From sequence record PZ386957.1: DNA of 64,000 bases; one strand, written 5' to 3'. The stretch comes from a phage. Position numbers and translations under genes: made by a program. How positions within the stretch are numbered: the first letter of the stretch is position 1; each line of letters opens with the position of its first letter. The notes under the pieces were generated by a model that had not been told where the DNA came from, made no database searches, and worked only from the letters and a program-made list of their open reading frames with translations. Positions 29,826 to 55,140 of the stretch are shown piece after piece.

Positions 29826-31504
29826 ATGACGCATTAACATCATTTCGCGGAATGCGTAAAGACGCAGATACTGTAAATCCGCTTGATAAGTTAGAAAAAT
29901 TAGATAAACTTGATTCATTAGATGATATGCAAGCTGCGACCGAAATGGTCGCAGAGACAGTAGAACAAAAATCTAATGAAGTTATTGAATCTGTGGAGGA
30001 TAACACCGCCGCAAGTGAATTGACGGCAGAGAATACTCAATCTACCGCCAGCAATACCCAAAAAACTTATGAGGAATTGCAAAAACTGAATAATTTCTCT
30101 TCTCAAATGAATGAGAAATTACGCGGGTTTGGGATCATGATGGAACGGCGATTCAGTGTCGTTTCCAAGATTACTAGCGGGCTGGATGCAATCGAAAAGG
30201 CTATCAAGGACGAGAAACAGCCAGAGCAGACTATGCCTTCTCCGCAACCAATTTTGCCAACTGTACCTGAACAACAAAACAATAATAACTATCCTACGTT
30301 ACCTAAAAAGCCTAAAGACGATAAAAAGAAAAACGACGATAATAACCGCGATCAAGATAAAAATATGCAGATGTTGATCAAAGTGGTTCGTGGTGGATTT
30401 AAAGAAACGATGGGGATTTCTAACAAGATATTCTCTATGTTGTTTAAAATGACCATAACTGCGATGCTAGAGGCTGCTAAATGGGGTGTTATCTTGCTGG
30501 GGATCGTTGTTGCTATTGATACTCTGTTGATTCATTTTAGGCACTGGAGCAAGCTGTTTAATACCAATTTTGAACAGTTTAAAGACAAAGCCGGTAATTG
30601 GGGTTCCACATTAGACACTATTTTAACTACTGTGCAGAATATTAGAGATTATTGGGAAAATAAAGAATATAGCGAAATGATCGCTGAATTTGTCACTGGT
30701 ATGGCAAAAGCACTGAGAGATGCGTTTTTCCAATTGGATAGAATAATCACTAAAGGTATTGCGTCGGTTCTTCGTTCGATCCCTGGTATGAGTTCATTGG
30801 CTGATACTCTGGAATATGGCGCATTGAAACAAGCCAAAGAACACGGCGGCGTTAAAATGGATGCGCGTGAAAAAGAATTATATGCCCGTATGAAGAAAAA
30901 AGAAGATATGCAAGCTGGTATGCTTACACAAGCAAAAATAGCGAATGTACAATACAGCACTGTCGCTAGTATGCAAGTAGAGCCTATTCTGTCTGAGGAT
31001 GAACAATATAAAATCGATAGGATGAAAGAACTAAAAACTGTTAGTGATGATGCATACACAAAGAGTAGTGATATAACAATAGATATTGAAACCGATATGG
31101 CTAAAAACATTTCTATGGTTGAAAACGTAAAACCGGGAACAAGACCTGATAAATTGGCTAGTCTTGATAAAGATGTTAACGAACATCGTAAAGCATTAGA
31201 CAATCCTGATTTGCTTTCTACTGATAAACAGAGAATTAAACAACTTTTAGACCGCTATGACCGAATCCGCGCTACTAAAAATACTCCTGCGGTGACTCCA
31301 CCACCACCGGATGAAACAGATACAGGAAAACAAGCTAATTCTATAGAGAAAGGTCAATTGCAGAATATCAGAAACGACAATACTGTTACAAATACTGCTA
31401 ATGTTGCAAACACACAGGTCTATAACAATAATAGGACTGTACAAATAACCAGACCTCAAACTAATACACCGTCGCCTGGTTTATTGCAGAAAGGAATAGT
31501 TTAA
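29822..31504 (+). CDS. 29: Baseplate hub / tail length determinator gp29-like
   Basis: 560 aa; synteny and size; start overlaps gene 28 stop. Confidence 0.75.
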   Translation: MNDALTSFRGMRKDADTVNPLDKLEKLDKLDSLDDMQAATEMVAETVEQKSNEVIESVEDNTAASELTAENTQSTASNTQKTYEELQKLNNFSSQMNEKLRGFGIMMERRFSVVSKITSGLDAIEKAIKDEKQPEQTMPSPQPILPTVPEQQNNNNYPTLPKKPKDDKKKNDDNNRDQDKNMQMLIKVVRGGFKETMGISNKIFSMLFKMTITAMLEAAKWGVILLGIVVAIDTLLIHFRHWSKLFNTNFEQFKDKAGNWGSTLDTILTTVQNIRDYWENKEYSEMIAEFVTGMAKALRDAFFQLDRIITKGIASVLRSIPGMSSLADTLEYGALKQAKEHGGVKMDAREKELYARMKKKEDMQAGMLTQAKIANVQYSTVASMQVEPILSEDEQYKIDRMKELKTVSDDAYTKSSDITIDIETDMAKNISMVENVKPGTRPDKLASLDKDVNEHRKALDNPDLLSTDKQRIKQLLDRYDRIRATKNTPAVTPPPPDETDTGKQANSIEKGQLQNIRNDNTVTNTANVANTQVYNNNRTVQITRPQTNTPSPGLLQKGIV

Positions 31505-31505
31505 T

Positions 31506-32561
31506 ATGAAAATTCAAGTTTTAGATGAGGCAAAGACCACATTAAAAAATGGTATTAAAACATCGGCTGGGTTTACCAGTAAACGCACAGATACTACATT
31601 AACCGCTCAATTTCCTTCTGAGCGCGCAAGCGGTAATGATGCGTCTGGTATATACATCAATGACCTTTATAATAACGGGTTATTGTTTACTGCCTATGAT
31701 TATAAAAATCGCGCAACTGATTCACTGCGAAACTTTCGAAATAAAGGGAATACCGTAGCTGGGTTTGGTTTGAGCATTAACAGTAGCGGAAAGGTTGAAA
31801 CCACAAGCAATAGAGAAGTTGGCTTTGACCGAAGTGCGGTTGCTAATATTCTTCTTCCTCGTAGTCAATCAGATGTTGATGCTGTCAGTCATAAGTTTAA
31901 TGATGTTGGTGAATCCCTCGTTACTCGCGGTGGTGGCACTATTTCTGGTGCATTGTCTGTTATGGCATCGACCGCTGTATTTGGTGGTCTTGAGAGCTTG
32001 ACGGGTGGTTATCTTGCGGATAAAAACGAACAGATCTATAATACTGCAAGGAGCATGTATGCTGGCGCTGACCCGCGAACTAAAAACTATGTTTGGCACT
32101 TAACCCCTCGTAGTATTGAAGATCTTCGAAATATACTGATTATCTACGAAACATTTTTAGAATTATCTTATGGTTCAAGTGGTATTTCCAGCACTGCAAA
32201 GCAATTGAAAGCCGAAGTTGATGCATGGTATAAAAACACAATTCTTTCTAAGACGGTTCCTGATGGTGCTGATACATCAAACACGGTATTTGAAGGAATT
32301 ACTGATTTTTTAACCAACGTAACCACTGTATCGAATCCGACAATTTGGATGATCTCTAATTTTGGTAAAAGATCTACCTATGAAGGAAGAAGCGATATTT
32401 TCGGACCCGCTCAAATTACCAGTGTGAGACTTGATAAATCCCCTGATGGTAAATTTAATGGGTTGGCAATTTCTCCTAATTTACCTAGTACCTTTGTTCT
32501 GGAAGTATCATTTAGAGAAATTCTTACTCTTTCCCGTGGTACTATATTTGGGAGTCAATAA
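31506..32561 (+). CDS. 48: Baseplate tail-tube cap gp48-like
   Basis: 351 aa; synteny and size. Confidence 0.75.
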   Translation: MKIQVLDEAKTTLKNGIKTSAGFTSKRTDTTLTAQFPSERASGNDASGIYINDLYNNGLLFTAYDYKNRATDSLRNFRNKGNTVAGFGLSINSSGKVETTSNREVGFDRSAVANILLPRSQSDVDAVSHKFNDVGESLVTRGGGTISGALSVMASTAVFGGLESLTGGYLADKNEQIYNTARSMYAGADPRTKNYVWHLTPRSIEDLRNILIIYETFLELSYGSSGISSTAKQLKAEVDAWYKNTILSKTVPDGADTSNTVFEGITDFLTNVTTVSNPTIWMISNFGKRSTYEGRSDIFGPAQITSVRLDKSPDGKFNGLAISPNLPSTFVLEVSFREILTLSRGTIFGSQ

Positions 32562-33490
32562 TGTTTGATTTAAATGATTTCAACGAACAAGCTGCAAACC
32601 TTGATTTTCAACGTTCTAACCTATTTTCGGTGGCGTTTGCCACCGTTCCTAGTAGCAAGACGCAACAAGTTTTAGAAAATTTTGGTGGCGCTGTTTACGA
32701 CCTTATTCCCGGAACTCTCAATGATGTTTTTGGTATAACTAGCGGTGAATATACCGATGCAGTAACTCATTTGGCTATACAAGGTGTGCGCAAAGTAACA
32801 GGTTCCAGTGGCGTTAAAAAGTATTTGTTAGGTGCAATGTCCTCCCGTGTTGTTCAATCTCTATTGGGGCAATTCACTGTAGGTACATATGTCATGGATT
32901 GGTTTAATATGGCATATCAAACAAGCGGATTGCTAGTCTATGCAGTGAAAGTGCCGGAAAATAGACTGAGCTATGAAATGGATCGTAACCATAACGCGCC
33001 AAACGTTCGTATTACCGGACGTGATTTCGACCCGCTTGTATTGAGCTTTAGAATGGACGCTAGCGCATCAAATTATAGAGCAATGCAGGATTGGGTTAAC
33101 TCGGTCGAAGATCCCGTTACAGGGCTTCGTGCGCTTCCGGTAGACGTTGAAGCAGATATTCAGGTCAACTTGCATAACCGTATGGGTGTACCTCACACTA
33201 TTATGATGTTTGGTGGTTGTATTCCTGTCGGTGTAAGTGCGCCTGAGTTGAGTTATGAAAATAACAACGAGATTACTACATTCGACGTTACCTTTGCTTA
33301 TCGTACAATGCAAGTTGGTGCGGTGGGTGAACAAGCCGCTAGAGAATGGGTTGAAGATAAGGCCATAAACCTAATTCAAAATACTATTGGTCAAGGTAAG
33401 GATAATTCATTGTCTTCTGCTGGTAGTGCATTATCTAGATTGCAAGGTGTTGGTGGTAGGGTAGTTAATACTATCACCAGATTATTTTAA
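32561..33490 (+). CDS. 54: Baseplate tail-tube initiator gp54-like
   Basis: 309 aa; synteny and size; similarity to the tail tube protein family. Confidence 0.75.
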   Translation: MFDLNDFNEQAANLDFQRSNLFSVAFATVPSSKTQQVLENFGGAVYDLIPGTLNDVFGITSGEYTDAVTHLAIQGVRKVTGSSGVKKYLLGAMSSRVVQSLLGQFTVGTYVMDWFNMAYQTSGLLVYAVKVPENRLSYEMDRNHNAPNVRITGRDFDPLVLSFRMDASASNYRAMQDWVNSVEDPVTGLRALPVDVEADIQVNLHNRMGVPHTIMMFGGCIPVGVSAPELSYENNNEITTFDVTFAYRTMQVGAVGEQAAREWVEDKAINLIQNTIGQGKDNSLSSAGSALSRLQGVGGRVVNTITRLF

Positions 33491-33495
33491 TACAA

Positions 33496-33518
33496 AAAAG
33501 GGGCATAGCGCCCCTTTT
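33496..33518. terminator. Bidirectional terminator after gene 54
   Basis: AAAAGGGGC-ATAGC-GCCCCTTTT, A-run and T-run on either side. Confidence 0.7.
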
Positions 33519-33519
33519 A

Positions 33520-34032
33520 TTATTTGATTAGATCATCACATTGCTTACGTAGTTTATATTTGTATTCTTTAGAACGTAGCATTTGTACTTTTTCATAATC
33601 TCCTTCCTGAAATGCAGACGAGAGATCATCTTGATATGCTGCCTCCGTTCCAATAACACACATACCAAATTTACGACGTTGATCCGCTTCTTCCATAGCT
33701 TTGCGGTTCATTTCTTCAATTGAATTTTCACGACCATAATAATATTCGTAAATGCGTTTCTTCTCTGCTTCTTTATCGGCTTTAATCTTTGCGATCTGTT
33801 CTGCTGATTCCGGCTGACGGCCTAAACGCTGTAATGCCGCATCTTTCTTTTCAAGATAGTTAATCACGCAATCTTCAACACTATTGAATGGAAAACGTGG
33901 TTCTTGCTGCCATCGTGCACATGAGCGTGCAAACTCTTGTGTATTCTTAGATGCAAGTGCCAGGTCATGCACAGCGCACCCATTAAGCATAGCCACTAAA
34001 GCCGCAAGACCAATCAGTTTAATCATTTTCAT
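33520..34032 (-). CDS. Putative lipoprotein (signal peptide + lipobox LNGC)
   Basis: 170 aa; N-terminus MKMIKLIGLAALVAMLNGC; start overlaps upstream stop (ATGA). Confidence 0.6.
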   Translation of the reverse strand: MKMIKLIGLAALVAMLNGCAVHDLALASKNTQEFARSCARWQQEPRFPFNSVEDCVINYLEKKDAALQRLGRQPESAEQIAKIKADKEAEKKRIYEYYYGRENSIEEMNRKAMEEADQRRKFGMCVIGTEAAYQDDLSSAFQEGDYEKVQMLRSKEYKYKLRKQCDDLIK

Positions 34033-34853
34033 TTAGTCACCTCACCGAAAATTGTAAATTGTCTACGATTCTCATCACCGAAAGATTCTACTACGTCGTT
34101 TACCTTGATGCAAGTCCCACGCGGTAAAATTACTTCACATTCGCAAGGGTTCCATGCAATCGACCCAACAACAAAACCTTTATGATCTTTTACATCAATC
34201 ACCCACGAAACATTACAAGAATGTTGCATCTTTCCGGTCATTGATTCATATCGATTTTCGCAATAAAGGCTAGTGCTATTTGAAAGCCAGCCTCCAAAGA
34301 TGATCGGTGTCATGCTGGTAGATACAAAGTTTTTAAAGGTAAATTCCTTATCTTCAATAATACGCTCTATTGTCTGAATGTCAAGATGTTGACCGCGATA
34401 AAGAGTACCGTTTAACTTTTCGGTTTTATCCATGACACAATCCATCAAATCAACCATTTCTGATATTTCGTCGGTCATGTCTTCTTCCCCTAAGAGAGCA
34501 CCATTTACCCATTCGTAATGCTCGGAGATATAATCGCAGATCGCATCATACTCGGCTGGGGTAAGATTGGTGTGTCCATAATGTTTGAATACACTATCTC
34601 CGAAGTCTTCGGATTGTACTTCGTACATGACATTAATGATCTTCTTGACAAATCCATAATCTTGTGTTTCTCGCTCAAGAAAACGGATAACCTTAACGTA
34701 ATCATCAAAGTTAATATGATCGCTGATCATCTCAGTGATCATGTAACCATTAATACCCTCAATGTCATATGTTTCAATATAATTGTCCATACGTTCCATC
34801 ATGGTTTCGCGTGCTTCTTCTGAAAGACGAAAACCCTGTAATTGTTTGAACAT
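34029..34853 (-). CDS. ADP-ribosyltransferase (Alt/Mod-like, R-S-ExE signature)
   Basis: 274 aa; LYRGQ (Arg), FVSTSM (STS), CECEVILPRG (ExE) aligned with the same motifs in the adjacent Alt; GGGAGG RBS. Confidence 0.75.
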   Translation of the reverse strand: MFKQLQGFRLSEEARETMMERMDNYIETYDIEGINGYMITEMISDHINFDDYVKVIRFLERETQDYGFVKKIINVMYEVQSEDFGDSVFKHYGHTNLTPAEYDAICDYISEHYEWVNGALLGEEDMTDEISEMVDLMDCVMDKTEKLNGTLYRGQHLDIQTIERIIEDKEFTFKNFVSTSMTPIIFGGWLSNSTSLYCENRYESMTGKMQHSCNVSWVIDVKDHKGFVVGSIAWNPCECEVILPRGTCIKVNDVVESFGDENRRQFTIFGEVTK

Positions 34854-34877
34854 TTTAAACCTCCCATATAACAGAAA

Positions 34878-34906
34878 ACGGGGCTAGTATAAAACTAGTC
34901 CCCGTT
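34878..34906 (-). terminator. Hairpin with T-run between alt and the downstream ART gene
   Basis: 11-bp interrupted inverted repeat ACGGGGCTAGT / ACTAGTCCCCGT followed on minus strand by TTTTCTGTT. Confidence 0.5.
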
Positions 34907-34931
34907 TGAGTCAACCATTATTTCTTAAAAA

Positions 34932-36983
34932 TTACATTTTAAATTTATCTGGCATTGCGTCTACAGATACCAGATCAGCAATAAGCTGGCGTAGAGTTGC
35001 TTTGTCTGCTTTCTTGCGTTCTGTCTTAGCTTCGGTAATAAAGCTGGAGAAAGACAGGTCAGAAGCAGGTTTAACAACACCTTCACGGATGAATGCATCA
35101 CCGTCCGCGATCATCTCGCCAGATTCTTGTAATGCTGCCAGTTCATTTTTGGTCATAATATGTGCCTCAATGTAATAAGTTTCTTGTGAATCCGTCGATG
35201 CCGTAGCACGAGTTACCGTATCAAAGGATAACACAACACCGCGAGGAAGTAAAATCTCGCATTCTTTGTAAGCAAATGCTTTGTTACCTACTGGCAATAC
35301 AGGGATGTTTTCCGCGCCAGCAATGGAGAAAGCAACATTAGCGCCACCTTCACCGCGAGATCCAGCCATAGAATCAACACCAGCAACGGCACTAGCCACG
35401 TTTGCATTCCAGCCACCAAAGATATTAGGTGCAAGGGATGTGCTCACATAGTTTTTAAAGTAAAACGCTTTTTGCTTACGTGCAGTTTCCCACATTTGCG
35501 ACCGGAAGTCCATACCACGATACAGAATAGTACCCGGATCAAGTTTAACTCCATAGTTAGCGAAGGCATTATCCAGTGCATCACACATCTTGACCAATTC
35601 TTCTGGATCTGCTACACCTTCAAACTCTTCCAGTTTTCGATCTGTCAGGAAGTTGTTCATGTTAATGTATGCTGCATCGGCGTATTCGCTTAATACAAAA
35701 CCTTCCGCACCTGGTAGGTCAAGATCAATATCTGCCATCATTTCACCCATGTTGCTAGCAATTGCTTCAAACATACCGGAAGCAACATTACGCAGGGCAT
35801 CGGTTTTAATCTGGGTGATATGACTACGCAGCATTTCAGCTTTTATGTCTGCTGGCATAGCCGGATCTACTCGGTCCATTGCAAGGGCAGTGATCTTGTT
35901 TTCGAATACTTCCTCGCTCATGATTTCTTTTAAGCGTTTAATTGATGCCGCGATAACTTCCGCAGACAACGGATCATATTGGTCCTGAACTTTTACCAGT
36001 TCACTTACTGCGTATTTTGCATCGGCTTCGCTTTCAAAGATAGTACGCATAAAGCCATAGCGAGTGATAATATCACTTGTCCAGTCATTCAAAGAACGGG
36101 CGGTTGAACGTTCTAAGGCTTGACGATCGATCAGAGTATTAAACTGTTTCTTCGGTTCCGCTTCGGTAATGTCTTCTTCCGGTTTAAGATTAATTTTTTC
36201 TGGATGATTGACATAATCACCGTTATATGTCGCTTGAGTTTTCAGCATTTCTTCTTTAGTCAAACGAGATTTAGCCGCTACGCGTTGTTCCGCTTCCGCG
36301 TTTCGTTCTTCTTCTGCTGCAAGGCTAGCCGCATATGCTTCATCTTTAGTAAGAGATTCGCCAGTAGCTTTAGATACCCAGCGATCACCTAAATCACTTT
36401 CTACTTTAGTGAACAAGGACTCATCCAGTTTAATCCCTTTAATCTTATCAATCGCCATCCCTCGACGCTTGACAACAACTAAAGCGATCTTTTTGCTGGT
36501 CATTACTTCCTGCTGGAATACTTCAAACTTCGGAGTACGACGCACTAAACGCTCTATAACTCGTTTAACCAGTTCGGTCTTGCCTTTCATACGGGAAACA
36601 TTAAAACGGAACATAACAGCGTCTAATTGAGCTTTACGGGCGGTTTCCATCACCACATCAAAAGCACTTGCCATAACAGCAATCGGGTTATCGCCTAGAC
36701 CATTTTTAAGCTGTACAATTCGACCGCTTTTATTCATCTCACACAGGACCACATGCGCGGTTTTATCACCCACGCGAATAATTTTAGGTGTTTTGTTGGT
36801 GAAGTTGCAAAGACGAACAATCACATCTTTATCGCGTGTCTGTACTGCAAAAAGCTGTTTTGGGTTCTGCTTCGGCTTTAGGCACTGTACAGGGGCAATG
36901 CTACCAAAGTTTTCTTCCTCTTCTGTTAACAGCCATTTCTCAAAAGATTCAATCATTAGATCGTCGATTTCTAAGTTAAACAT
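34932..36983 (-). CDS. alt: Alt-like ADP-ribosyltransferase
   Basis: 683 aa (T4 Alt is of similar size); C-terminal ART motifs ILYRGMD, YVSTSL, KECEILLPRG; synteny downstream of DNA ligase. Confidence 0.85.
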   Translation of the reverse strand: MFNLEIDDLMIESFEKWLLTEEEENFGSIAPVQCLKPKQNPKQLFAVQTRDKDVIVRLCNFTNKTPKIIRVGDKTAHVVLCEMNKSGRIVQLKNGLGDNPIAVMASAFDVVMETARKAQLDAVMFRFNVSRMKGKTELVKRVIERLVRRTPKFEVFQQEVMTSKKIALVVVKRRGMAIDKIKGIKLDESLFTKVESDLGDRWVSKATGESLTKDEAYAASLAAEEERNAEAEQRVAAKSRLTKEEMLKTQATYNGDYVNHPEKINLKPEEDITEAEPKKQFNTLIDRQALERSTARSLNDWTSDIITRYGFMRTIFESEADAKYAVSELVKVQDQYDPLSAEVIAASIKRLKEIMSEEVFENKITALAMDRVDPAMPADIKAEMLRSHITQIKTDALRNVASGMFEAIASNMGEMMADIDLDLPGAEGFVLSEYADAAYINMNNFLTDRKLEEFEGVADPEELVKMCDALDNAFANYGVKLDPGTILYRGMDFRSQMWETARKQKAFYFKNYVSTSLAPNIFGGWNANVASAVAGVDSMAGSRGEGGANVAFSIAGAENIPVLPVGNKAFAYKECEILLPRGVVLSFDTVTRATASTDSQETYYIEAHIMTKNELAALQESGEMIADGDAFIREGVVKPASDLSFSSFITEAKTERKKADKATLRQLIADLVSVDAMPDKFKM

Positions 36984-37029
36984 TTTATATCCTCTAGTTG
37001 ATAACCTATAAACCTATATTTATGAAAAA

Positions 37030-37044
37030 GGGGCTTTACGCCCC
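37030..37044 (-). terminator. Terminator after small early gene
   Basis: GGGGC-GTAAA-GCCCC followed by TTTTTC on minus strand. Confidence 0.6.
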
Positions 37045-37045
37045 A

Positions 37046-37225
37046 TTAAAACATCTTAGAAATTAATTCTGCTTTGATTTCGCAGAGAACATCTAAAGAT
37101 TTCTCGTCACCTGCTTTTGCTGCTTCTGCTTGCATTTTTGAAATGGCTTCGAGGTCGGTGCAATTATAAGCCGCCTGAACTTTAGCGATTGCGATGATTG
37201 CAGATTCGATTGTTAAGTGTTTCAT
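37046..37225 (-). CDS. Small early protein (59 aa)
   Basis: ATG with AGGAGA RBS 34 nt downstream of a perfect TTGACA-17-TATAAT promoter; MKHLTIESAIIAIAKVQAAYN... Confidence 0.65.
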   Translation of the reverse strand: MKHLTIESAIIAIAKVQAAYNCTDLEAISKMQAEAAKAGDEKSLDVLCEIKAELISKMF

Positions 37226-37257: not shown

Positions 37258-37286
37258 ATTATAGGGGATCGGTGATCCCCTGTCAA
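37258..37286 (-). promoter_or_regulatory. Early promoter cassette TTGACA-17-TATAAT with palindromic spacer GGGGATCACCGATCCCC
   Basis: Perfect -35 and -10 hexamers; spacer is a palindrome containing two GATC sites. Confidence 0.8.
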
Positions 37287-37293
37287 CAACTTT

Positions 37294-37812
37294 TTAGTTA
37301 TTTTTTAATTGCTCATCTTGCAATAATGCAATCACATGCTGGCGATGTTCTTCCGATTGAGGCACACCGAAAAAGTTTGTTTTGTAGAAATATTCTAATC
37401 GATCTTCTCGTGTGCTCTCTTCCATCATGATAGCTGGTAGACCAAGATTGCGAAAACGTCGCTTTTCTGCTGGCGTAAAATCGCTGTAATACAACATAGA
37501 ATCATCATTACCAGCAATGCTAAACTCATCCTTCATGAAAGAGAATATTGCGTTTAAACGCTGTTTACCGTCCACGATTTCGATCTCATAGCGAGAGCCA
37601 TCATCAATCTTAGCCATTGCGATAGCGCCTACCGGAAAATCATTAATAAGGTTTTCGACAAACATGCGTTTGTTTTCTGTATTCCATACCAACTCACGCT
37701 GATAATCTGGGTTCATGTTGATATAGCCATCTTCTAACCATGCCTCATAGACAGAGATGACAAAGTTTTTAGTATTGGTATAGTAACGGCGTTTAGGCGT
37801 TAAACGGTTCAT
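37294..37812 (-). CDS. DUF262/ParB-like nuclease-domain protein
   Basis: 172 aa from ATG at 37812 (AGGAG RBS); motifs DYQRELVW and VDGKQRL typical of the ParB/DUF262 (GmrSD N-terminal) fold. Confidence 0.7.
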   Translation of the reverse strand: MNRLTPKRRYYTNTKNFVISVYEAWLEDGYINMNPDYQRELVWNTENKRMFVENLINDFPVGAIAMAKIDDGSRYEIEIVDGKQRLNAIFSFMKDEFSIAGNDDSMLYYSDFTPAEKRRFRNLGLPAIMMEESTREDRLEYFYKTNFFGVPQSEEHRQHVIALLQDEQLKNN

Positions 37813-37813
37813 A

Positions 37814-38146
37814 TTATAGTCTCCTGAATGGATCATCACGTAGGTCAATATCTTTTAAGAACTCATCCCATGAATGCCGGATATTGTTCTTAGTTCTCCA
37901 GATAAGAGCAGGAATCGAACGCTCTCCCATCTGGAAGTAAGGATCATATGATCCATATGCCCAATATGCTACTACAATTCCACAATCAGCGCAATAGTAT
38001 TCTATTTCACTTGCTGGCGACCAAAGACCATCAATATGATCGGTGATCTTGCTTTCGATGTTATGGCTATGACAATCAGGGCAACGGATGCAATGACCTT
38101 GTTTATCGTAATTTGACGTTAGCGAATACTTGAATAATCTCATCAT
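37814..38146 (-). CDS. Zinc-ribbon protein
   Basis: 110 aa; CIRCPDCHSH...YYCADCG (two CxxC pairs); start overlaps upstream stop. Confidence 0.65.
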   Translation of the reverse strand: MMRLFKYSLTSNYDKQGHCIRCPDCHSHNIESKITDHIDGLWSPASEIEYYCADCGIVVAYWAYGSYDPYFQMGERSIPALIWRTKNNIRHSWDEFLKDIDLRDDPFRRL

Positions 38147-38859
38147 AGATCCTTATTGGCTTCAAATACTGCCTTTGCAAATCCGCGCGGGGTAAGTGAC
38201 CGGATAGTCTTTGTTCTGGTTCCTTTCCCGCCTAGCTTAGAATGCTGTTTACTGTACCCTTTCTCAATTGGTATCGGTTTCTTTTCTGGCATTATAAAGC
38301 CTTGTCCAGTCCATAGGCAAGTCTTTTTAGGATACATGTCACGGGCGGCGATATAATCAGGGAAGGTCGGATGTATATCATCTTCCGGTAAATATCCGCC
38401 ATATTCCCACGGGTGGAACATATAATCGGGTTTACGCCACATGCTAGAGATAACGCTTACAGGATTCTCTATCATGTAGGGAACGCCCAACCATTCGCCC
38501 AAATAAGCCGATATTTTCGCTGTTTGTACATCTCTGTGTTGAATGAGTGGACCTAGAGTTTTTCTCTTACGTTCAAAGTGTGCAGCACCACTAACCGCTA
38601 AATTTGAACAGCTAGGAAATGCAAAAATCATATCCGGTTTGCCCCATTCAAGATCCATTGCTCTTTCTAGCCAATCCAAATCAATCCAGGTGTTTACATA
38701 GGTAATGTTTGGATGCTCAAATCGGGTATTATACTTTTTGTATGTACCGTGGTCGCCATCGTCAGCATTAAAGCAGATCACCTTATGACCTGCTTTAGCC
38801 CATTCTAGCCCCATTATCCCCGATCCGTCAAAGTTGCAGAATATTAATTTTTGTTTCAC
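38143..38859 (-). CDS. Compact C5-cytosine DNA methyltransferase-like protein
   Basis: 238 aa, GTG start overlapping upstream stop (GTGA); motif I-like FDGSGIMG, PCQ-like FPSCSNLAVSG with Cys, ENV-like MIENPV, C-terminal RSLTPRGFAKAVF resembling RxLTPRExxRLQGF. Confidence 0.65.
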   Translation of the reverse strand: MKQKLIFCNFDGSGIMGLEWAKAGHKVICFNADDGDHGTYKKYNTRFEHPNITYVNTWIDLDWLERAMDLEWGKPDMIFAFPSCSNLAVSGAAHFERKRKTLGPLIQHRDVQTAKISAYLGEWLGVPYMIENPVSVISSMWRKPDYMFHPWEYGGYLPEDDIHPTFPDYIAARDMYPKKTCLWTGQGFIMPEKKPIPIEKGYSKQHSKLGGKGTRTKTIRSLTPRGFAKAVFEANKDL

Positions 38860-39147: not shown

Positions 39148-39176
39148 ATTATAGGGGATCTCCCGATCCCCGTCAA
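39148..39176 (-). promoter_or_regulatory. Early promoter cassette TTGACG-17-TATAAT with palindromic spacer GGGGATCGGGAGATCCCC
   Basis: Hexamers and GATC-containing palindrome seen in sequence. Confidence 0.75.
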
Positions 39177-39190
39177 CAACTTTTTTAAAA

Positions 39191-42907: not shown

Positions 42908-42936
42908 ATTATAGGGGATCACCGATCCCCTGTCAA
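42908..42936 (-). promoter_or_regulatory. Early promoter cassette TTGACA-17-TATAAT with palindromic spacer GGGGATCGGTGATCCCC
   Basis: Perfect hexamers and GATC palindrome. Confidence 0.8.
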
Positions 42937-42943
42937 CAACTTT

Positions 42944-43860: not shown

Positions 43861-43890
43861 AGTATAGGGGATCGGTGATCCCCTGTCAAC
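43861..43890 (-). promoter_or_regulatory. Early promoter cassette (TTGACA-18-TATACT) with palindromic spacer GGGGATCACCGATCCCC
   Basis: Consensus -35, imperfect -10, GATC palindrome. Confidence 0.6.
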
Positions 43891-55099: not shown

Positions 55100-55128
55100 A
55101 TTATAGCGGGGATTTCTCCCCGCGTCAA
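55100..55128 (-). promoter_or_regulatory. Promoter/stem-loop cassette TTGACG-17-TATAAT whose spacer is the hairpin GCGGGGAGAAATCCCCGC
   Basis: The hairpin plus flanking A/T runs also reads as a terminator for the upstream nrdA fragment. Confidence 0.65.
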
Positions 55129-55140
55129 CACTTATTTTTT

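Follow-up and report, generated by a model that had tools for sequence, protein, structure and literature searches.

The stretch of DNA analysed here (the window; sequence record PZ386957.1, 64,000 nucleotides (nt) from a phage) carries three consecutive open reading frames (ORFs) on its minus strand that are the subject of this report: a gene for a large ADP-ribosyltransferase (ART) of the Alt type (alt, 683 amino acids (aa), 36983..34932), a gene for a second and smaller ART that we refer to as ART2 (274 aa, 34853..34029, the ortholog of RB49p183 of phage RB49), and a gene for a predicted lipoprotein (170 aa, 34032..33520). All three are confirmed by the ORF list at the positions given in a first-pass annotation that had been made from the letters alone. 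The 78 nt that separate alt from ART2 (34854..34931, minus strand) hold what we describe below as a PeSL-type element, composed of a promoter, a hairpin and a Shine-Dalgarno sequence (GGGAGG), and between the lipoprotein gene and the plus-strand gene gp54 lies a bidirectional intrinsic terminator (33496..33518; AAAAGGGGCGCTATGCCCCTTTT) with T-runs on both strands.

A megablast search with positions 33400-37100 returned 59 phage records at 90-95% identity, all of them RB49-like Escherichia and Shigella phages of the genus Krischvirus, and by sequence the window belongs to this group of T4-type coliphages. The trio consists of known and annotated genes. In the RefSeq entry of RB49 the gene RB49p184 is alt, RB49p183 bears the label ADP-ribosyltransferase "similar to C-terminal part of T4 Alt", and RB49p182 is hypothetical, while the record of phage W115 lists the third gene of the trio as a putative lipoprotein. 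A PHROGs family also exists for each of the two small genes (phrog_15144 for ART2, and phrog_16112, for which no function is named, for the lipoprotein). Nolan et al. 2006 had described RB49ORF183c, together with 44RRORF188c and T4 alt.-1/alt.-2, as paralogs produced by duplication of the neighbouring alt gene (PMC1524935). The novelty implied by the first-pass annotation is therefore absent, and the newness of the trio itself is low. What we add is incremental: a strongly conserved boundary of the PeSL type that divides alt from ART2, the pairing of ART2 with the lipoprotein, the cassette-like replacement of the lipoprotein's mature domain, and an ART complement made up of Alt, ART2 and a single Mod enzyme.

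The alt product has the features of a large Alt-like RNA polymerase ADP-ribosyltransferase, to judge from its match to phrog_802 (5.6e-179), its match to PF03496 over residues 425-611 (36.5 bits, E 4e-9), and its amino acid identity to the Alt proteins of RB49 (98%) and T4 (26% over the full length). Its catalytic triad consists of the Arg of YRG 488-490, STS 514-516 and ECE 574-576. The same three motifs occur in the same order in ART2 as R153 (within YRG 152-154), S178-T179-S180 and E238-C-E240, and a BLASTP comparison of the two proteins (36% identity over 135 aa, E 1e-16) aligns all three, in agreement with what had been read from the letters. ART2 matches PF03496 (ADPrib_exo_Tox), the profile of the Alt/VIP2 family within the R-S-E clade of ARTs, over residues 82-266 at 56.1 bits (E 4e-15; the cut-off is 23.4), and phrog_15144, named 'ADP-ribosyltransferase', over its full length (E 4.8e-189). 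These matches, like that of Alt to PF03496, lie far beyond chance. The counterpart of ART2 within Alt spans positions 333-602 of the 674 in phrog_802, corresponding to a helical lead-in and the catalytic domain, so that ART2 comes without the N-terminal ~330 aa of Alt and without its conserved C-terminal tail of ~80 aa. The family PF26846 (Tevenvirinae_ADPRT), which covers the N-terminal region common to the T4 and RB49 Alt proteins, matches Alt-sized proteins only.

In family alignments R153, S178-T179-S180 and E238/E240 are invariant among all ART2 homologues found, down to 23-31% identity. The AlphaFold (AF2) model of ART2 (pLDDT 82.5, pTM 0.81) places R153 in strand 150-158 (beta-1) and the STS motif in strand 177-180 (beta-2), with E240 opening strand 240-243. 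When this model was compared with the PDB by Foldseek, the top matches were Vis, Certhrax, C3bot, iota-toxin Ia and CDTa (E 7.6e-11 to ~1e-8), and the ART toxin/immunity pair 6drh was also among the matches; the predicted fold is that of a C3/Vis/iota-type ART. It had been set down beforehand that ExE residues lying off an ART fold would speak against the assignment. In the model the ExE motif instead falls at the start of a strand, and the Foldseek matches are themselves ARTs. By sequence alone the search of the PDB gave only a weak best match for ART2 (Lmo0066, E 0.003), no Alt homologue was found in the PDB, and PADLOC returned no match for ART2. The proposal that ART2 is a true paralog of the Alt family is thus borne out by PF03496, the invariant triad and the predicted ART fold. 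Among R-S-ExE ARTs the ExE ARTT motif is a hallmark of arginine-specific enzymes, and since ART2 carries this motif its expected chemistry would be arginine-specific mono-ADP-ribosylation.

Within the catalytic region ART2 shares ~30% of its residues with the Alt of the same phage and ~31% with T4 Alt, and the ART2 sequences of five lineages form a clade apart from the Alt sequences. Given this low identity and separate clade, ART2 is an old and distinct orthologous group and not a recent tandem copy. In T4 the slot between alt and the convergent gp54 is filled by alt.-1, alt.-2 and alt.-3, and for the first two the annotation gives an origin by ancient duplication of the 5' part of alt. The presence in T4 of truncated alt duplicates at this very position lends some weight to a reading in which ART2 is likewise a decaying remnant of an alt duplication and its neighbour an outer-membrane spanin. 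However, ART2 is kept across lineages as a full-length ORF at 30-72% identity, and its invariant triad and confident predicted fold speak against decay; the spanin half of this reading is taken up with the lipoprotein below. The searches also brought up a third architecture besides those of Alt and ART2, represented by two Alt-like ARTs, P0016 (415 aa) and P0017 (316 aa), which lack the N-terminal ~330 residues of Alt and possess its C-terminal tail (DGD...ETG..., ending ...KFKM or ...KFII), so that the N-terminal region and the tail of Alt look like separable modules.

The first-pass annotation had placed ART2 and the lipoprotein gene in one transcript with alt. The spacer between alt and ART2 suggests otherwise. 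On the minus strand it reads TAATTTTTAAGAAATAATG-GTTGACT-caaacggggactagttt-TATACT-agccccgttttctgttatatGGGAGGtttaaaATG, within which a consensus scan recognizes a promoter at 34915..34886 with a -35 box GTTGAC, a 17-nt gap and a -10 box TATACT. This promoter overlaps a 12-bp G4/C4 hairpin (~-20 kcal/mol, z -2.3) that is followed by a T-run. The -35 consensus of RB49 early promoters is GTTGAC, with G at -33 (Nolan 2006, PMC1524935), and in the PeSL elements of RB49 and phi1 the promoter serves the gene that follows, transcription arriving from upstream being attenuated by the stem-loop; elements in which the stem-loop overlaps the -10 box are one of the common subclasses (Arbiol et al. 2010). 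By these features the alt-ART2 spacer fits the definition of a PeSL, with promoter and terminator activity predicted. Where 0.35 matches to GTTGAC-N15-19-TAWAMT would be expected, the window contains 10, every one of them on the minus (early-gene) strand. The spacer sequence is the same in AV108 and W115 and differs in RB49 by a single T indel, the surrounding coding DNA being ~6% different. The -35 and -10 boxes, the G4/C4 stem and the T-run are likewise kept in five metagenomic lineages (L007, L012, L013, L015 and L010) in which Alt and ART2 have diverged to 30-60% protein identity, and across these lineages two pairs of the stem show compensatory double changes.

The region upstream of alt is built differently (37014..37044, minus strand): a terminator hairpin at 37044..37030 is followed at 37023..37016 by CATAAATA, a motif that resembles a late promoter and lies 33 nt from the ATG of alt, and the region is conserved in RB49, AV108 and W115. 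This spacing agrees with that of the canonical late-promoter sites of the type TATAAATA, which stand before seven plus-strand late genes, in six at 31-37 nt from the ATG and in the remaining one at 20 nt. A motif scan found no late-promoter motif before ART2. Since a conserved PeSL-type element separates alt from ART2, and alt has a late-promoter-like motif of its own, the claim that ART2 is cotranscribed downstream of alt is probably wrong. Most likely ART2 and the lipoprotein gene would form a separate early bicistron that receives at most attenuated read-through from alt, with alt expressed late as in T4. A further promoter-like site, TTGACA-16-TATTAT, which agrees with the consensus at 11 of 12 positions, lies inside ART2 at 34384..34357 on the minus strand. 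As a promoter for the lipoprotein gene it was rejected, the peptide encoded there (HLDIQTIERI) being unconserved in divergent lineages, and it is probably a chance match.

The same evidence bears on whether ART2 could be a second injected ART, packaged in the virion and made late by read-through from the alt late promoter. ART2 shares its strand with the adjoining alt and baseplate genes, head packaging has often been inferred for phage ARTs that occur in T4-alt-like contexts (PMC9503650), and the hairpin in the spacer is imperfect. ART2 also has LxE/IxE motifs of the prohead-protease type near its N-terminus (LSE 10-12 and ITE 39-41), but motifs of three residues are expected by chance. On the other hand, ART2 lacks both the ~330-aa N-terminal region, to which PF26846 matches in Alt only, and the C-terminal tail. 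It is set apart from alt by the conserved early promoter and terminator, has no late-promoter motif of its own, and is predicted to be co-translated with an exported lipoprotein. We consider late synthesis and injection of ART2 quite unlikely. Of the earlier suggestion that ART2 is an 'injected or early' enzyme, it is thus the early part that stands, supported by the conserved early-type promoter, and the injected part is the less likely option.

The lipoprotein ATG overlaps the ART2 TGA as ATGA, exactly as had been noted in the first reading. In every lineage that has either of the small genes the order is alt, ART2, lipoprotein and then the convergent gp54, and in all lineages the ART2 stop and the lipoprotein start overlap or lie no more than 12 nt apart. 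Even the most divergent lipoproteins, where the contigs are long enough, sit directly 3' of a PF03496 protein of 264-282 aa that is itself behind an Alt of 660-683 aa. In every lineage found, ART2 and the lipoprotein thus appear as a conserved and, from this arrangement, translationally coupled pair. Such strict pairing is also what might be expected of a toxin with its immunity protein, or of two obligately interacting proteins in which the downstream gene product neutralises or directs the ART. Immunity genes do follow some ART toxins of bacteria, and one such pair, 6drh, was among the fold matches of ART2. Yet ART2 has no signal peptide, whereas its partner carries a lipoprotein signal and four Cys residues suited to the periplasm, which would place the two in different compartments. 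The mature domain of the partner is moreover swapped while ART2 stays 95-100% identical, a pattern hard to square with a specific binding partner. On both counts we reject a toxin-immunity relation, which seems to us very unlikely.

The lipoprotein begins with MKMIKLIGLAALVAMLNGC-A, in which a positively charged n-region (MKMIK) and a hydrophobic core precede the lipobox L-N-G-C, with Ala at +2. The signal peptide is predicted to comprise residues 1-18, and Cys19 to be lipid-modified. The lipobox was called by motif analysis with the strict PROSITE pattern [LVI][ASTVI][GAS]C in view, and the earlier description of the 170-aa protein as lipobox-bearing probably holds, though the Asn at -2 fails that pattern. 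Other alleles of the family have a canonical LTGC, MTGC or LFGC, Cys19 being invariant. Throughout the family there is hardly any variation in the signal peptide and lipobox, and Cys 38, 55, 125 and 165 are also conserved, which fits two periplasmic disulfides. The mature domain of 151 aa is modelled as all-alpha (pLDDT 81.7). The protein matches phrog_16112 and had no fold match in the PDB and no match in Pfam, NCBIfam or PADLOC; T4 alt.-3 is unrelated to it. When 1.84 billion representative proteins were searched with a profile of the lipoprotein, 10 hits were obtained, nine of which are lipoproteins of the same type (103-174 aa, one of them truncated or frameshifted). The tenth, P0020, is a spurious repeat protein.

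That an o-spanin is the usual lipoprotein of a phage of Gram-negative hosts would favour the spanin half of the remnant reading introduced above. However, the spanin pair of RB49, pseT.3/pseT.2, is annotated elsewhere, ~17 kb away, and a lipobox screen of ~200 kb of Krischvirus sequence found only that o-spanin and the 170-aa lipoprotein. The neighbours of the lipoprotein gene are ART2 and gp54, with no adjacent i-spanin gene, and its 151-aa mature domain is entirely helical. The reading as a whole, decaying remnant plus spanin, is largely refuted by our data and extremely unlikely.

In tblastn searches the lipoprotein was found in 59 phage records, all of them RB49-like (Krischvirus-type), and among the matches listed it adjoins ART2. 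By identity to the window its alleles fall into three classes: 6 records at 80-90%, JK32 and Whisky at ~46%, and ~50 records of the RB49 type at ~30%. Between the window and RB49 the identity of the proteins is 98% for Alt and 95% for ART2 but 38% for the lipoprotein, and between RB49 and AV108, whose ART2 proteins are 100% identical, that of the lipoprotein is 37%. At the nucleotide level, identity within the lipoprotein gene falls from ~99% to ~50% near codon 20, and for the pair of RB49 and AV108 it recovers in gp54. This collapse at ~codon 20, next to a nearly identical ART2, shows that the mature domain has been exchanged in the manner of a cassette. A mosaic boundary of the window between 30960-33975 and 33975-37000 has its switch at this same point, ~codon 20 of the lipoprotein gene; gp29, gp48 and gp54 show ~50-90% nucleotide identity to RB49 and ~65-90% to AV108, and alt and ART2 94-99%.

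To place ART2 among the ARTs of T4-type phages, it was aligned with Alt, ModA and ModB, as the first-pass annotation had proposed. The relation to Alt is clear, while ModA and ModB are only 15-17% identical to ART2 in a forced alignment, and PF03496 has no match in either. It was correctly stated that in T4 modA and modB lie elsewhere; they form a tandem at srd. The single mod homologue of RB49 is RB49p014, which adjoins srd and has an active site of R44, S70 and E132-x-E134 (L006, 8917-9420, minus strand, 167 aa, annotated modB). A tblastn search of the Krischvirus composite genome with T4 ModA gave no significant match. Membership of ART2 in the ModA/ModB family is rejected on account of the 15-17% identity and of the true homologue sitting at srd. 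The predicted ART complement of Krischvirus is accordingly Alt, ART2 and one Mod, versus Alt, ModA and ModB in T4.

Our preferred reading, to which we assign a probability of about 0.65, is that the Krischvirus trio consists of a late, injected Alt followed by a PeSL-led early unit that encodes ART2 and an envelope lipoprotein. By homology with T4, Alt would be synthesized late, packaged in the head and injected. The PeSL-type element, a putative sigma-70 early promoter with its -10 box inside a terminator or attenuator hairpin, would lead the two-gene unit, which would end at the bidirectional terminator held in common with gp54. ART2 would be cytoplasmic, made de novo early in infection, and would modify host proteins as the functional counterpart of a T4 Mod enzyme without being its relative. 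The lipoprotein may act on the envelope through a disulfide-stabilised helical domain, superinfection exclusion or another envelope-level conflict being its most likely role. Such a conflict role at the envelope is plausible; that it is exclusion-related in particular is a guess.

Several points weigh against this reading. The promoter in the spacer was called by consensus matching only, at 10 of 12 positions, and the spacer hairpin, being bulged and followed by a short T-run, may allow read-through from alt. Overlaps of start and stop codons are frequent in T4-type genomes, and coupling of ART2 to the lipoprotein need therefore not imply a functional link. The Asn at lipobox position -2 of the window allele is unusual. 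In the literature on RB49p182 and RB49p183 we found no transcript, virion proteome, enzyme-assay or functional data. Finally, the allele class of the lipoprotein does not co-vary with the type of the gp38 adhesin, all three classes occurring with both gp38 types, which speaks against a simple model in which the lipoprotein, in the manner of Llp or Cor, blocks the receptor that its own phage uses. The tests of family, fold and gp38 lower the case for an Llp-type identity, and they do not lower that for action at the envelope.

Although speculative, the early unit of ART2 and lipoprotein can be extended into a dedicated takeover-plus-envelope module of Krischvirus. ART2, as an Alt-derived enzyme, would here fill the role of one of the two T4 Mod enzymes or ADP-ribosylate a host defence protein, and the hypervariable, disulfide-bonded lipoprotein of the outer membrane would be a new exclusion or anti-defence factor that stands in for Spackle and Imm and diversifies by cassette exchange at the signal-peptide boundary. 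No homologue of either T4 protein, Spackle (Sp) or Imm, was detected in the Krischvirus composite genome. We put forward this wider scheme tentatively and regard it as rather unlikely.

For genome annotation there is little gain in these results, the genes being already in RefSeq and PHROGs. They may be of more use to the study of phage ARTs, which are of renewed interest through RNAylation by ModB and ART anti-CRISPRs. A putatively packaged Alt and a putatively early ART2 that belong to one catalytic domain family would offer a clean comparison of target choice, and our search of the literature found no published assay of any member of phrog_15144. The lipoprotein, being narrowly distributed, fast-swapping and without fold relatives, is a candidate exclusion or anti-defence factor in phages that are used for therapy.

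The sequence around the trio shows further variation. Between alt and a 59-aa ORF (37225..37046), at 36984-37045 on the minus strand, the window is missing RB49p185, a 70-aa ORFan of RB49, AV108 and W115; tblastn with RB49p185 found no match anywhere in the window, and RB49p186-p189 are present at 91-99% identity. This is an insertion or deletion of an ORFan, right beside the terminator that precedes alt. The minus strand also has perfect or near-perfect sigma-70 promoters at 37287..37258, 39177..39148, 42937..42908, 43890..43861 and 55129..55100. In four of the five the 17-nt spacer holds a hairpin of nearly the same sequence, GGGGATC...GATCCCC, and in the last a different G/C-rich one, GCGGGGA...TCCCCGC; all are PeSL repeats of the classic kind that belong to the RB49 hyperplastic region. 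Also upstream of alt on the minus strand are an early gene at 37294-37848 (the ortholog of RB49p187, a DUF262 domain protein according to the W115 record) and, in the same hyperplastic region, the ortholog of RB49p189 at 38143-38859, a DNA methyltransferase in the RB49 annotation.

Among known systems, the closest to the small ART described here is RB49p183 (NP_891754), which is 94.5% identical to ART2 in amino acid sequence, has the same length of 274 aa and occupies the same place between alt and the lipoprotein gene, so that nothing material differs. T4 Alt has in common with ART2 the family of the catalytic domain and the triad (LYRG/LYRS, VSTS and ExE). It differs in that ART2 forms a separate clade, is without the N-terminal ~330 aa and the ~80-aa tail, and has a predicted early-type promoter in place of a late one. 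All components listed for PeSL cassettes (Arbiol et al. 2010; Comeau et al. 2014) are present in the alt-ART2 spacer, namely a stop codon in an AT-rich stretch, sigma-70 boxes, a polyG/polyC stem-loop over the -10 box, a Shine-Dalgarno sequence and a start codon, with the difference that this copy borders a conserved gene pair and not a variable ORFan. The lipoprotein resembles Llp of T5 and Cor of phi80 and N15 in being a small phage lipoprotein of rapid divergence, for which early expression and a location in the inner leaflet of the outer membrane are predicted here. No likeness to them in sequence or fold was detected, however; it is ~2.5x larger, all-helical and equipped with four Cys residues, its gene does not adjoin the receptor-binding gene, and its allele class shows no correlation with gp38 type. 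ModA and ModB, finally, are like ART2 small enzymes with an R / S / ExE active site and an early sigma-70-type promoter (predicted for ART2), but they are not homologous to it at the family level and are placed next to srd. The role that we propose for ART2, in which an enzyme made de novo would extend the start provided by injected Alt, is analogous to that of ModA and ModB.

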